From a virus (taxonomy: Duplodnaviria > Heunggongvirae > Uroviricota > Caudoviricetes): a DNA stretch of 22,206 bases. The stretch lies in the IMG/VR virus record IMGVR_UViG_2529293040_000022, one strand, 5' to 3'. This document shows, piece by piece, positions 15,001 to 21,000 of this stretch (within the stretch, counting starts at the first letter, position 1; each line of letters opens with the position of its first letter). The position numbers were made by a program.

Positions 15001-18000
15001 GTACTGGACAACAGGAAAAACATTTCCAAGGGGAAACCGGCTTGCCCAGTTATCCGAAATAAGTGGTTATCCGCAATCGTGGTTTTTAGGAGAAATCACG
15101 TCACGGCAGTTCTCTTCAAAGGAAAAACATCAAGCAAGAACTGACAGTGTGGTCTTTAACGTGCTCGATGTTGAGTTTAGTTGCGGCGATGGAACACATG
15201 TCCGTGGGGACTTTATCGATGTAGTTCGCTCAATCGAGCTTGATCCTGAATATGCCCGTCGCCTTGTTGGCAATAGAGCATTTCAAAACATAGAGATTGG
15301 TAACGCAAGAGGAGATAGTATGGCTCCAACAATAGCCCCAGGAGATCTTCTTTTTCTCGATAAAACAGTGAATTACTTTGATGGTGATGGCATTTATGCT
15401 TTTTGCTTTGATGGTGAATGCTACGTCAAAAGATTACAAAAGATAGGAAGTAAAATCATGGTGTTATCTGATAACCCAAATTACCAATCCTGGAGCATTG
15501 AAAAAGATGCTCTTGAGCTGCTTTATATCCAATCGAAGGTAATCTCATCTGTTCCATTCAATATAAATAGATTTGGTTAATTATTGATTATTAAAGAAAA
15601 ATTTACAAATCAAGTAAAAGAGACGCAGAAATCAATTTTTTCTTGACAACTCCATCAATCAAGATCTAACATCACACCATCAATTTTGACTTGATTTATT
15701 GTTAATTTTAAATTGATGGTGATTCAATGAAAGATCTGACAACCGCTGAGATATCGAACTTAAACCACTTCGAAAAAGAATCCTTTGCATTAAATATTGC
15801 AAATCTGGTAGGTGCTGCTCGTACTTTCCATTTAATTGATGGTGATCGCTCTAAAGAATTGGGGTTTGAAGTCATGGAGTTTGTTCATGAATACGCCCTG
15901 TCTGCTACTTATCCATTACATAATCACATAATCAACAAACAACCAAATAAAATCCGCACCCAACGCGAAGCCTGCGGCTTAACAACCGCCGAACTCGCCA
16001 GGCTGCTCGATCTCGATGAAGAAATTATCATCCAGTGGGAAAGCGGAGAGTACGAACCAACCATCAGCATGCTTATCCCTCTGGCTAATGTTCTTGGCTG
16101 TGATCCAATGTTGTTATTGACTGATGCTTATAAACAAAATCAGGAGGAAGCATAAGATGAAAATGTTCAAAGGCCTTACCAACGAACCGGAGACAGCTTT
16201 TCATCACATTGCCGTACTGCTTGAAGCGGGGTTAATCATTTCGGCTTCCGGTGATGAAGAATGTGATGAACTTTCGGATGATATCTTTTTACTGGCACAA
16301 CAATACGCCAAAAGCGCATGCGATGCATTTAAGGAGCAAAGAACATGATAACTCCATTAAATATTCTTGAGGAAGTGGCGGCACAAATAAAAGAGAATAC
16401 ATCAATGCTTGAATTTATATTTAAGAATTCGCCCGACCAAGGAGAGACAGACGATTATTTATGCTGTCTCATTCGCTCCATGAATAAGACCTGTGAAATG
16501 GCTTACGAGTATATAGAAACACTACGCAACGAATAAAGAACACTCAGTAAAAAATCACACATAAAAACATGACGGCCTCTGGTCGTGGATTTCCACAACC
16601 AGAAAATAATGGTGATGCATGAAAAATAGAAACGCTTATAAAACCGCATTATTAATGGCTAATGCAGGATACTGGTCAGTTGCAATACTGTTTCTCAGAA
16701 AAGCATACGGGAAATAACAAATGGCATGTACAACCATTTATAAAGATCGTCGCCGCATGGTAACAGCGGCACTCCGGCGGATGCAACGTAAAACAGGTAG
16801 TAATCTGCTCGTCGTTGACCTCCCGGACGGAGAAATAACAACGATAGAAATAACTGAACAGTTCATGAACCAGTTGTTATTACGATTTGAGGGTCTTACC
16901 CGTGTTGAATATGGACGGACGGAAGGAGAAGCAACAATCCGTACCGCATACCAGAATGCCATCGGTATTAATCAACACACGGAATATCTCACTGAATCAG
17001 GGAAACTGATAGTGGACGGCCTTTTAAAAGAGGTTGTTGACTACGTAAAAGAGAAATATATCAGTGGAGGAATTAACTGATGTCTGATTTATCCCCTCTT
17101 ATACACGAAAAAGTACAGATCATTATGACGATTGAAAATGGTCAGGTAATAAATACCCGTAAAGTTCACAATAACGAGATGATTGCCAGCATGGATACCT
17201 TCTTATGGATAGCAAAGAAAGCGGGATATCAGGTAATCGCTCCTGATCTGGAGGAAATCGGTGACATTAACAGCAATACGAATTCCTGAGTGGGTGCACC
17301 TGCAGGCGGTCCGTGTTCTCCGCCAGTTCAGAGCCAGACGAATTCATCCCTGTCGTATGCACGGCTCCGGAAACCTGAGTCTGAGGGTTAATCGCCGCTG
17401 GCGGCTGCTGTCCCGAGACGGCGGCCAGAACTGGGAAGTAATGAGCCATGAACGATACAGCAAAGTTAAGGACCGGAAATGAACAATAAACCTTCAAACC
17501 AAAAGGAGAGTATTGATGATTAATTCAACCATTACCCCTGAACCTACATTAACAGGCATCCGTTTTGGTAATCGAATTATTGGTTATTCAACTGCGGTTC
17601 GCCAGATCGACAACGGTAACTATGACAAACGAATTCCGGACGGGCTCGATCTGATAGCTTGCATTATGGAAGGGATTGAAAGCGGCTGGTTTATGCCGTG
17701 TATTGAAAAACAAATCATCCTATGGCGCTGGCTTGTTGTCGCCGTGTTCATTGCTGAGGAGCAGGAGAAGAACGGGACTGTCGATGTTCAGAATGACAAG
17801 GGCGGCGTAGATACAGCCGTTGTATACACAGGAAAACCCGGTTCAATCAGCATTTATCCATGGTCTGAGCGCTTCGCGCTCGCTAACCATATCGAGGCGG
17901 GCGCAATTGAAAAATACGGGCCTGACGTTGGCCAGCAGATGGCGCTGCGTATGTATCAGGACATGGTTGTAACTGACGAGAAATGCGGATTCAGGCTGTC

Positions 18001-21000
18001 AGCGATGGGCCGGGAGGGACTCAACATACTACATGACAGCTTCATTGAACTGATTCAGAAAGACGGTATGCCAGACATGCCGGTTATGCACTGAGGTGGA
18101 CGAAAATGAACATAGTAACGATCAATAACAAACAGCTTCCGGCAGTCGAATATCGCGGTCAGCGTGTTGTGACGCTGGCGATGATTGATGAAGTCCACCA
18201 GCGACCGGAAGGAACAGCGCGTGCAGCATTCAACCGAAACCGTGAGCATTTCATCAGCGGTGTGGATTATGCCGAATTAGGTGCGGACGTAATACGTACG
18301 GACCTCCCGGAAGGAACATTCTCTAAATTTGCACCATCAGGGATTGTACTTTTTGAATCAGGTTACCTGATGTTGACGAAGCCATTCAATGACGCCCTTG
18401 CCTGGCAGGTTCAGCGCGAACTGGTTAACAGCTACTTCCGCACTCGCACACCGCTAACGGAAATCGAGATGATCGCTGCGATAGCCGCCGACGCTGTTCG
18501 TCAACAGAAGCGCCTGAATCATGTGGAAGAACAGCTCGAAACAGTCACAGAAGCGGTGGAAACCATCAAACGCGGAAATATGCGCGCCGGATATGTCGGT
18601 TATCGCCAGGTGGTCGCCAAAAGCGGAATGACTGATGCTAAGTGCCGCAATCTGGTCAATGCCTACAGCATCCCAACCGATACGCACGAATTTATGACAC
18701 CAGATGGTCTTCTTTCGCGCCGGGCTATCGTGGAGCTGGAGCCATTCATGAAAGCATTTCATCAGATGATGTCAGAGGCAGAGCCACGTGGTACCCGCTG
18801 GTATCACCCGAAGATGGGGCTGTTTCAGGTGATTGGTTGGGAGGGTAAATAATGTCACTCATTACACAAAATTTCCGCCTCAATGCGCTGGCAAATCAGT
18901 ATGCGGCGGCACTGCACAACCACATATCCGCCACCAGCGGTGGTCATTTCCTGATTAATGTCAATGGGCAATCCATACGAGTAAACATCATCGGTGGGGT
19001 TAAAGGCATCAGGGACTTAATCGATGGTTATGCTCTGAAGGCTATCAAAGAAAATTACCCCCAATGGGAAGCCGTTGGTATTCAACTGTTAAGCAAATGC
19101 GTTCGTGGAAACGAGCTGACGCAAAGCGGCAAAGAAATCTGGCAGAGCATGGTCAACGACATGAGCGATACCGTTATGGGGAACATGTAAATGAAAATCC
19201 AATACCAGGACTATGGCGCCGTAGCGAACATCGTGATCACCAGTTCCTGCCTGACATTGCAAAAGCATAACCGCGTTGTTGATGCGGTGCTGTTTAATGT
19301 ACAGGGGATCTCTGAAAACCGCAGCGGCTTTTTCTGGGTTAAGTCATCGTTGTCAGGAAAAACACGCGACATCCTGCGCGCCTACAAAATCGTACAGCGG
19401 GAGGCAAAGTGATGAAGTCATTCCTCCTGTCCATACTGTTTAGTCTGCTGCTGGCGTCCGTCGTTTTCGGTACGCTGATTGAATATAAATTTTTAATGAA
19501 TTACTGAGGTGCGGGGTGGGCAAGATCAAAAACCCAGTTGTACTTATCCATAAGCGAGAAAATAGTGACTCCTACGCCGTTACAATCACCTGCGGTAGCC
19601 AGAACTATCACGACGCCGTTCTGATGGCGTCGATGGAACTGGATATGAGTGACGATGATGTCGATACCTAGAGTAAAACAGGCTATTACATGGCTGAAGA
19701 AATCGAGCGACTGAAACAAGCACTTTCCGCTGCGGAAAATAATCTGATTGATTCCGAATGCCTCGTAGCTGAATTAAGCAAAGCAAAGGATCACGCATAT
19801 GGGCTGGTCGACACATACGACTGGCAACGTCAGCGTCTCCACGCAGCCGCTGAGAAAGTCCTCAAATGGTGCAGACAAGAAGCTGAACACCGTACCGGCG
19901 ATCCAGAGAAAGCAGAAAACTATGCGTGCGTTAAAGAACTACGCGACGCATTAACTTTTTGCAAAAGTTCTGAAAGCAGCAAGAAGAAAGGCCTGACTAT
20001 CACCCTGCCCGATATCACATCAAAGGCATTCTGGAGCGGTACCGGAAAAAACGCAAAATTCCATCCGGCAACCTATAAACGCTGGGTGAAAGAAGCTATT
20101 AAACGGGATTGTGTTATTGCCGGGATCGGCGTGGAGGTGAAATGATGAATTGGCCTGAAGCATTCACCGCAGTAGGAGTTGCAATAGCGGTGGCATTTAT
20201 TCTGTATTCGCTTTTCCGCTGGGGATAAAGGAATGTTCGCTCTGATTCAACGTGGTCAGATATACACCGATAGTGCTGGCTACCCGATAAAAATTATTCG
20301 CTGCATAAACAACACTGTGTTGTACAGAAGAATGGATGGGCGAACACAGTCGGTAAAAATAAACGATTTTAATGAACTGTTTGAACGGATCGATCACCAG
20401 GAATACCGACAAATTCTGGCAGAAACAGAGCAGGAAGCTCATCTGAAAAAATTACGAGCCATGAAAAGGAAGTAAAGAATGAATAAAGCATTTGAACGAT
20501 GGGTCCACCAGCGTTACGGCAATCGCTATGACCTGACACGAGATGTTGACGGTTTCTACTGTCGTGAAATTGTGAAACGAATGTTTGAAGTGTGGTGCCA
20601 CTGCCGTGGGCTGAGTGTTGTGTGAGGTTGGCATGCAGACAATCATCTATCAGATAACCCCCAGCAAATGGTGTACGGAGAGAGTCCTCATTGCATCAAC
20701 AGGGCTAAAGCCTGGCACCATTGAGCGGGCAAGAAGAAAGTCATGGATGCAGGGAAAAGAATACCGCCATTACGCTGTAGAAGGTGATCCGGGGCACTAC
20801 AGTGAATGCCTGTACAACATCGAAGAAATTATGCGATGGATCGAAAACCAGAAACAACCAGGTGCCAAAAATGCAAGTTCCGGTTAACCTGTTAATGCTC
20901 CTGGACGTCTGGGAGGTTTAATGAGTAACGCATCATACCCGACAGGCGTTGAAAACCATGGAGGATCACTCCGTATATGGTTTCACTATAATGGCAAACG

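Follow-up and report, generated by a model that had tools for sequence, protein, structure and literature searches.

A ParE-like gene apparently without an antitoxin in the early operon of a lambdoid Escherichia coli prophage

The locus considered here lies in a 22,206-nucleotide (nt) stretch of a Caudoviricetes genome (IMG/VR record IMGVR_UViG_2529293040_000022), referred to as the window, in which two small overlapping genes encode proteins of 69 and 73 amino acids (aa), and it raises the question of whether the two form a toxin-antitoxin (TA) module. A sequence-only reading had placed them in a block of coupled open reading frames (ORFs) of 119, 69, 73, 193, 248, 112 and 73 aa, had seen no family signature in either protein, and had suggested that they could act as a TA-like pair. 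The toxin half of that suggestion was supported, in that the 73-aa protein falls in a toxin superfamily by Pfam and by modelled fold, but the pair is not conserved and each gene occurs without the other. The comparisons suggest that the 73-aa gene, called ParE-like below, forms a cassette of its own that was inserted where two genes meet, and that it is not one member of a conserved pair.

An ORF scan recovered all seven ORFs of the block, consecutively on the + strand between 16721 and 19412:

16721-17080, + strand: 119-aa protein (phrog_1737), conserved first gene of the 119-aa/69-aa pair
17080-17289, + strand: acidic 69-aa protein with an isoelectric point (pI) of 4.8 (phrog_340); its final nine codons are shared with the beginning of the following gene
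17250-17482, + strand: ParE_like 73-aa cassette (PF24732, predicted RelE/HigB/ParE fold), comprising a GGAGG ribosome-binding site (RBS) at 17250-17254 and the ORF from GTG 17261 to TGA 17482
17516-18094, + strand: 192-aa protein (193 aa if started at 17513; phrog_1515)
18106-18852, + strand: 248-aa antirepressor-like protein with an ORF6N domain (PF10543) and a C-terminal domain (phrog_6610)
18852-19190, + strand: 112-aa protein (phrog_37628)
19191-19412, + strand: second 73-aa protein, basic (phrog_1001), found directly after the ParE-like gene in 25 related loci

The junctions are, in order, a 1-nt overlap, a 29-nt overlap, gaps of 33 and 11 nt, a 1-nt overlap and a 0-nt gap. Every one of the seven proteins matches a PHROG family (E-values from 6e-24 to 9e-89), and they are therefore conserved phage genes and not chance ORFs. 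The 193-aa ORF does exist, but its likeliest start is the ATG at 17516, 7 nt after an AAGGAG, which gives 192 aa. A patch rich in guanine and cytosine (GC), which had been noticed at the 69/73-aa pair, is real but confined to the ParE-like gene, with 55.4% GC against 39.0% in the 69-aa gene and 43.9% in the 119-aa gene. In this lambdoid E. coli prophage the block is an ordinary, mosaic set of accessory genes that occupies the variable middle of the early-left (PL-type) operon; its genes, each exchangeable independently of the others, would have been brought together by recombination at their boundaries.

Family, fold and conserved residues of the ParE-like protein

A family signature was found after all in the ParE-like protein, which matches Pfam PF24732 (ParE_like) with an E-value of 9.9e-20 and 70.8 bits against a gathering cut-off of 24.4, its residues 11-68 aligning to profile positions 2-67 of 67. 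The same assignment is shared by 67/67 homologues found. The family is small: a search of 1.84 billion cluster representatives yielded no more than 112 clusters (50% identity), nearly all of them stand-alone proteins of 60-90 aa. The protein of the window is strongly basic (pI 11.9). The Prokaryotic Genome Annotation Pipeline (PGAP) names it "ParE family toxin-like protein" and starts it at different codons in different genomes, giving 62 aa or 73 aa; the copy at NZ_CP027550 2258545-2258733 illustrates this inconsistency. Homologues down to 64% identity are mostly 71-73 aa long and keep the N-terminal motif M-x-L-T-A-I-R-I-P-E, and a GGAGG lies 6 nt before GTG 17261. The 73-aa form is supported because this motif is conserved and the GGAGG stands at the right spacing.

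An AlphaFold model built with 35 homologues reached a predicted local distance difference test (pLDDT) score of 87.9 and places a strand at residues 2-5, a helix at 10-24, strands at 39-42, 47-51 and 57-62, and a helix at 63-71. The top Foldseek matches of this model were YoeB, YafQ, RelK and GraT, with E-values of about 0.1, probabilities of 0.66-0.92 and template-modelling (TM) scores of about 0.5. In both fold searches, of which Foldseek gave the weaker agreement, toxins of the ribonuclease (RNase) type ranked above the ParE gyrase poisons. By Pfam and by predicted fold, the ParE-like protein thus belongs to the RelE/ParE toxin superfamily, whose members have an antiparallel sheet packed against N-terminal helices in an alpha/beta fold, and the model appears to share the fold of HigB, RelE and YoeB, which are ribosome-dependent messenger RNA endonuclease toxins. 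Furthermore, hhalign aligned its residues 27-50 without gaps to residues 52-75 of Proteus vulgaris HigB (E-value 0.003; the HigB query agrees with PDB 4mct), and the segment G-x-x-S-[LI]-x-V-x-x-x-W-R-[LI] falls gaplessly on HigB residues 62-74. The same program gave no usable alignment with single, approximate sequences of YoeB and RelE.

Further likeness to these toxins is seen in the small size and basic character of the family, in a conserved Arg on strand 3 and in a conserved Tyr near the C-terminus. Unlike them, the protein has 73 aa and one N-terminal helix, and its family does not conserve the counterparts of HigB His54 and His92. Conservation was counted over 92 representatives of the 50%-identity clusters, among which R48 is kept in 90/92, Y66 in 84/92, H63 in 81/92 and E64 in 67/92; W58 is also nearly invariant. 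The active site of RelE-type RNases such as RelE and YoeB lies in the sheet and the C-terminal region. R48, H63, E64 and Y66 fall in the sheet and C-terminal region of the model, which by analogy would match the RelE-type active site. The protein is, as far as its sequence indicates, a miniature RelE/HigB-like superfamily member with a conserved polar constellation of its own, and not a HigB orthologue.

Neighbours of the ParE-like gene across related loci

The genes around the ParE-like homologue were compared in 135 loci, of which 47 come from species-representative genomes and 80 from viral contigs, the rest being reference phages, E. coli prophages and the window itself. The upstream ORF, assigned in 130 loci, belongs to the 69-aa family in 77; in 37 the 119-aa family stands there with no 69-aa homologue, as in phage AsXd-1, and in the other 16 a different gene is found. 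Unrelated upstream genes include a ParB-like gene in Serratia phages and a gene for a protein of ~200 aa in Xenorhabdus and Pectobacterium islands. Across the 135 loci the neighbours form 8 clusters upstream and 19 downstream, the downstream families being the 137-aa phrog_1886 (44 loci), the second 73-aa protein (25), the 192-aa protein (20), a 103-aa protein (11) and others. The ParE-like gene was also observed in Sortsnevirus, in Murrayvirus and in phages of ~95 kb, each time among unrelated neighbours.

Conversely, 69-aa homologues occur without a ParE-like gene in Klebsiella and Salmonella prophages of the same architecture, in which the 119-aa gene and a 61-65-aa member of the 69-aa family are followed directly by the next gene; tblastn detected no ParE-like sequence in those prophages. 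ParE-like genes that are 93-97% identical to that of the window adjoin 69-aa variants just 45-64% identical, so that the divergence of the two is decoupled. The comparison of related prophages for presence or absence of the pair, which had been proposed with the sequence-only reading, therefore speaks against a pair. Among 5426 complete E. coli genomes, the ParE-like gene was found in 133 and the 69-aa gene in 117, and the whole block at a coverage of at least 80% in just 8.

Translation of the ParE-like gene is coupled to that of the ORF before it, and the upstream proteins carry a C-terminal S(D/N)TNS tail only when a ParE-like gene follows. This tail coincides with the RBS, the start codon and the first nine codons of the ParE-like gene, and is best taken as a by-product of the overlap for that reason. 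As a grafted antitoxin peptide it was rejected, the overlap explaining the tail and the tail being missing when the gene is missing. Other candidate partners were discarded as well. Of 105 distinct homologous sequences, just 36% keep open an antisense 76-aa ORF (17267-17497, minus strand) that was considered as a hidden antitoxin, and the 119-aa protein is no constant partner either, the upstream genes in Sortsnevirus, Murrayvirus and the 95-kb phages not being homologous to it.

Searches of Pfam, NCBIfam, PADLOC and PDB gave no match for the 69-aa protein and thus no antitoxin-type DNA-binding domain, and no promoter-like site was seen between 16700 and 17300; both are weak tests, the latter for an autoregulated promoter. 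Around 17250-17482 there was neither a promoter-like nor a + strand terminator-like site of the kind that would mark a moron. A conserved adjacent antitoxin gene, as expected of a type II TA system, appears to be absent. The ParE-like gene would be a solitary cassette because its neighbours vary, each gene stands alone elsewhere, divergence is decoupled and no conserved partner of its own was found. In this it departs from HigB, RelE and YoeB, as it has no conserved adjacent antitoxin of the HigA, RelB or YefM type and no promoter of its own, and lies inside a phage early operon. In the three-gene PaaR2-PaaA2-ParE2 system, a dedicated regulator and antitoxin are, as far as is known, always found with the toxin. 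ParE2 of E. coli O157:H7, a protein of 93 aa, was co-crystallised with its cognate antitoxin (PDB 5czf), whereas the ParE-like gene is without a conserved partner.

Distant ParE-like homologues (37-61% identity) were seen in Xenorhabdus, Pectobacterium and Brenneria (loci L050-L060, around 4001-4216 of each), beside a conserved protein of ~191-200 aa and, in Xenorhabdus, with a ~440-aa protein on the other side. These contexts are chromosomal and apparently non-phage, and may be integrative elements.

Operon context, neighbouring proteins and origin of the window

The block sits in a rightward operon between a cI-like repressor and xis/int, which is the lambda PL position. The features that define this context are as follows:

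14813-15580: cI-like XRE/S24 repressor
15631-15718, + strand: promoter-like region with TTGACA-18-TAACAT at 15643-15672, flanked by ATCAA-N7-TTGAT operator-like repeats
15727-16155, + strand: helix-turn-helix (HTH) "CII-like" protein of 142 aa, followed by two small genes
between the block and the excisionase gene, + strand: DUF4222 protein
20615-20887, + strand: excisionase (DUF1233/phrog_539), at the distal operon end just before the integrase

The order on the + strand is thus cI-like repressor, promoter and operators, HTH regulator, small genes, block, xis and int. The promoter-like site is a 10/12 promoter match. The ATCAA-N7-TTGAT repeats (ATCAAG/CTTGAT) at 15607-15718 recur in the divergent cI/cro intergenic region (14781-14861, with 14781-14809 within it) and are candidate operators of the S24 repressor, and 15631-15718 would be the PL-like early promoter of the operon. 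No protein encoded between 15727 and 20887 matched a family of the Exo, Bet or Gam type in Pfam, NCBIfam or PHROGs, so that homologues of the lambda Red/Gam module were not observed between the immunity region and xis/int, as the sequence-only reading had held.

That reading had also described the block as largely unassigned early accessory genes around an ORF6N-type protein, and most of its proteins indeed have no assignable function: those of 119, 69, 192 and 112 aa and the second 73-aa protein are conserved phage proteins without one. PADLOC defence models, run against ten proteins, gave nothing significant, nor did NCBIfam for the proteins of the block; PDB sequence and profile searches with all seven returned just BNR-like "DGGQxW" noise and de-novo-design repeats. 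For the 119-aa, 112-aa and second 73-aa proteins there was no informative match in Pfam, NCBIfam, PHROGs, PADLOC or PDB. The 192-aa protein occurs in Stx1, Stx2, phiP27, Klebsiella and Enterobacter prophages, and some records label it "2-polyprenylphenol hydroxylase-related", a label that no Pfam or NCBIfam match backs; its AlphaFold2 model is poor (pLDDT 59.7) and the fold search with it was uninformative. Residues 12-56 of the 69-aa protein (window 17113-17250) weakly match C-terminal parts of antirepressor PHROGs, namely positions 198-242 of 268 in phrog_4792 (E-value 2.6e-5) and positions 136-178 of 187 in phrog_2379 (E-value 7e-4), and the protein may be such a C-terminal domain in a copy that stands by itself. 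A precomputed PF27490 match is found in some of its homologues but was not reproduced in the Pfam scan made here.

The antirepressor-like N-terminus seen in the 248-aa protein was confirmed as ORF6N (PF10543) at residues 14-92, with an E-value of 5.9e-12 and 46.2 bits against a cut-off of 27.8, and the protein matches antirepressor PHROGs with an E-value of 9e-70. Its ORF6N N-terminus and PHROG match are shared with the ORF6N, Bro-N and KilA-N antirepressors (PHROG 1726, 4608 and 63). In a Klebsiella prophage (locus L008, 4991-5386), a Phage_pRha-type protein ends in a region with 84% identity to the separate C-terminal domain of the 248-aa protein (residues ~116-247, window 18451-18849, phrog_6610). 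The same C-terminal module thus stands behind ORF6N or Phage_pRha, and the N-terminal DNA-binding domains have therefore been swapped. The 248-aa protein would accordingly be a modular antirepressor-like DNA-binding protein, a label given by annotation homology. It differs from the ORF6N antirepressors in that its N-terminus is exchangeable with Phage_pRha and in the resident repressor that it accompanies; since that repressor carries an S24 self-cleavage domain, induction should be possible with no antirepressor. Any antirepressor role of the 248-aa protein would, speculatively, more plausibly be aimed at other repressors.

Positions 16500-19700 are 99.8% identical to the Stx2f-converting phage phi467 (LN997803) and 99.9% identical to prophages of four complete E. 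coli genomes. Over the whole window, matching stretches with phi467 are 6458-7673 (93%) and 7957-20628 (99.5%) only; positions 1-6457 and those beyond 20628 have no phi467 match, the late genes and the integrase being different. A 2.5-kb segment of phi467 that holds stx2f and its transfer RNA (tRNA) genes (LN997803 14796-17298) is absent from the window, at a place corresponding to 7674-7956, and an ARAGORN scan of the window found no tRNA. An Rfam scan of the window also gave nothing. The source prophage is, by this comparison, a stx-negative mosaic relative of phi467 because the phi467 match is partial and the segment with stx2f and the tRNA genes is missing. In the phi467 record the ParE-like gene (LN997803 26604-26822) is not called, and the 192-aa gene (LN997803 26859-27436) is split into two coding sequences.

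Elsewhere in the window, a low-GC patch (35%) at 8000-9000 holds a + strand ORF of 287 aa (8087-8950), opposite in strand to the flanking minus-strand late and regulatory genes; the phi467 record has two hypothetical proteins there, and the ORF looks like inserted cargo. A 209-aa ORF of phi467 is broken in the window (19516-20145) by an in-frame stop at 19669-19671, a Trp codon in phi467, leaving pieces of 51 and 151 aa, and PGAP annotates the homologous region as an incomplete pseudogene.

Proposed role, alternatives and significance

Based on these comparisons, a mechanism is proposed in which the cassette at 17250-17482, consisting of the RBS and the 73-aa ORF, would encode a miniature member of the RelE/HigB/ParE superfamily (PF24732) built of a strand at the N-terminus, one helix, a sheet of three strands and, at the C-terminus, a short helix. 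It would have no dedicated antitoxin; the 69-aa gene would just read into the cassette and end there, which would give rise to its S(D/N)TNS tail. The cassette product, small and basic, would inhibit growth as an RNase-type or ribosome-directed protein, its active face being formed by Arg48, His63, Glu64 and Tyr66. In the lysogen it would be kept silent by the prophage repressor acting on the early promoter and would be made only after induction, the safeguard being this repressor and not a protein antitoxin. An activity directed at RNA or the ribosome is favoured over gyrase poisoning because Arg, His, Glu and Tyr are conserved and the resemblance to RNase-type toxins is closer. The structural parts of this proposal, namely the operon context, the superfamily membership and the solitary cassette without a conserved partner, are highly probable. 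The whole explanation, a solitary superfamily cassette in this operon acting as a repressor-silenced inhibitor, is rather probable, and the mechanistic part, a toxin of RNase type that the repressor silences, is a tentative proposal with somewhat less than even chances.

Several observations weigh against this proposal. The residues critical in HigB are His54, Asp90, Tyr91 and His92 (PMC5027501). At position 29, which corresponds to His54, just 18/92 representatives have His, and by gapless extension of the hhalign register the His92 equivalent would be Ser or Asn and the Asp90 equivalent R, K or T, the Tyr91 equivalent being Y66 (84/92). A HigB-type active site is accordingly not preserved, which would place the protein outside the HigB subfamily. 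No paper that names PF24732 and no experimental study of a family member was found in the literature, and homologues called "HigB-like" bear that name by annotation only (PMC7556043). Acidic as it is, and encoded directly upstream in 59% of the loci, the 69-aa protein may yet have a loose or promiscuous neutralising role. An untranslated gap of 184 nt (16537-16720), whose RNA fold is unremarkable (z -1.94), separates the promoter-proximal genes from the block, and repressor control of the operon is a prediction from sequence motifs.

Alternatively, the protein may keep the RelE/ParE fold and yet be neither toxic nor catalytic; by binding, for instance, to RNA, to ribosomes or to some protein of the phage or its host, it could serve in early development as a regulator or in counter-defence. 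Such a role would fit a protein shorter than the canonical toxins, with a single N-terminal helix and without conserved equivalents of the HigB histidines, that is carried with no antitoxin by temperate phages, by Sortsnevirus and Murrayvirus genomes, which appear to be lytic, and in island-like contexts on chromosomes. The near invariance of R48, H63, E64 and Y66, placed by analogy at the active-site region of RelE-type RNases, argues against it, and a non-toxic binder is a possible but doubtful explanation.

It is unlikely that the two genes form a genuine type II TA pair, with an acidic antitoxin encoded upstream of a basic RelE/ParE-type toxin and translationally coupled to it. The toxin fold and the Pfam match of the downstream protein are established, the charges contrast (pI 4.8 against 11.9), the genes overlap by 29 nt with the RBS inside the upstream gene, and the 69-aa family stands upstream in 77/130 loci. 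However, the 119-aa gene takes that place without a 69-aa homologue in 37 loci and an unrelated gene does so in at least 16 more, and 69-aa homologues are common without the toxin-like gene. Nor is there co-divergence, a Pfam or PDB match or detected antitoxin-type DNA-binding domain in the 69-aa protein, or a promoter-like site of the pair's own, and the conserved tail is accounted for by the overlapping RBS and the N-terminal codons of the ParE-like gene. That the protein is a ParE-type poison of DNA gyrase, as the Pfam name ParE_like and the PGAP name "ParE family toxin-like" would have it, is very improbable, given that its best sequence register is with HigB and that the model has a single helix where ParE typically has an N-terminal hairpin of two.

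The preferred reading, a solitary inhibitor restrained by the prophage repressor, has parallels in other phages. Lambda Kil is a growth-inhibitory early gene product kept harmless by the prophage repressor. The YdaS/YdaT toxins of the rac prophage are controlled by RacR (PMC5700373). The logic proposed here would be the same, an early growth inhibitor restrained by a repressor and not by an antitoxin, but the folds of Kil and of YdaS/YdaT are unrelated to that of the ParE-like protein, whose toxicity and repression are inferred.

Much of this locus is already known, in that its sequences and labels are public, near-identical copies exist in GenBank and the early region is a typical mosaic, mostly of "hypothetical" genes, such as the majority of lambdoid prophages have. 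A modest novelty is the apparent behaviour of the PF24732 family as an antitoxin-less cassette. The label "ParE family toxin-like" invites a TA interpretation that comparative genomics does not support. On a more speculative and less probable view, PF24732 would represent a distinct class of antitoxin-less miniature RelE/HigB-type effectors, carried as single-gene cassettes in the early operons of temperate and apparently lytic phages and in other mobile elements, which would shut down host translation or hinder host defences during lytic development or element transfer, with transcriptional silencing by the element's repressor as the sole safeguard. If the protein is an active toxin, PF24732 would offer a clear case of a RelE-superfamily effector that works with no antitoxin, and this would bear on how phages take over their hosts and on the automatic annotation of TA systems in relatives of Shiga-toxin phages.

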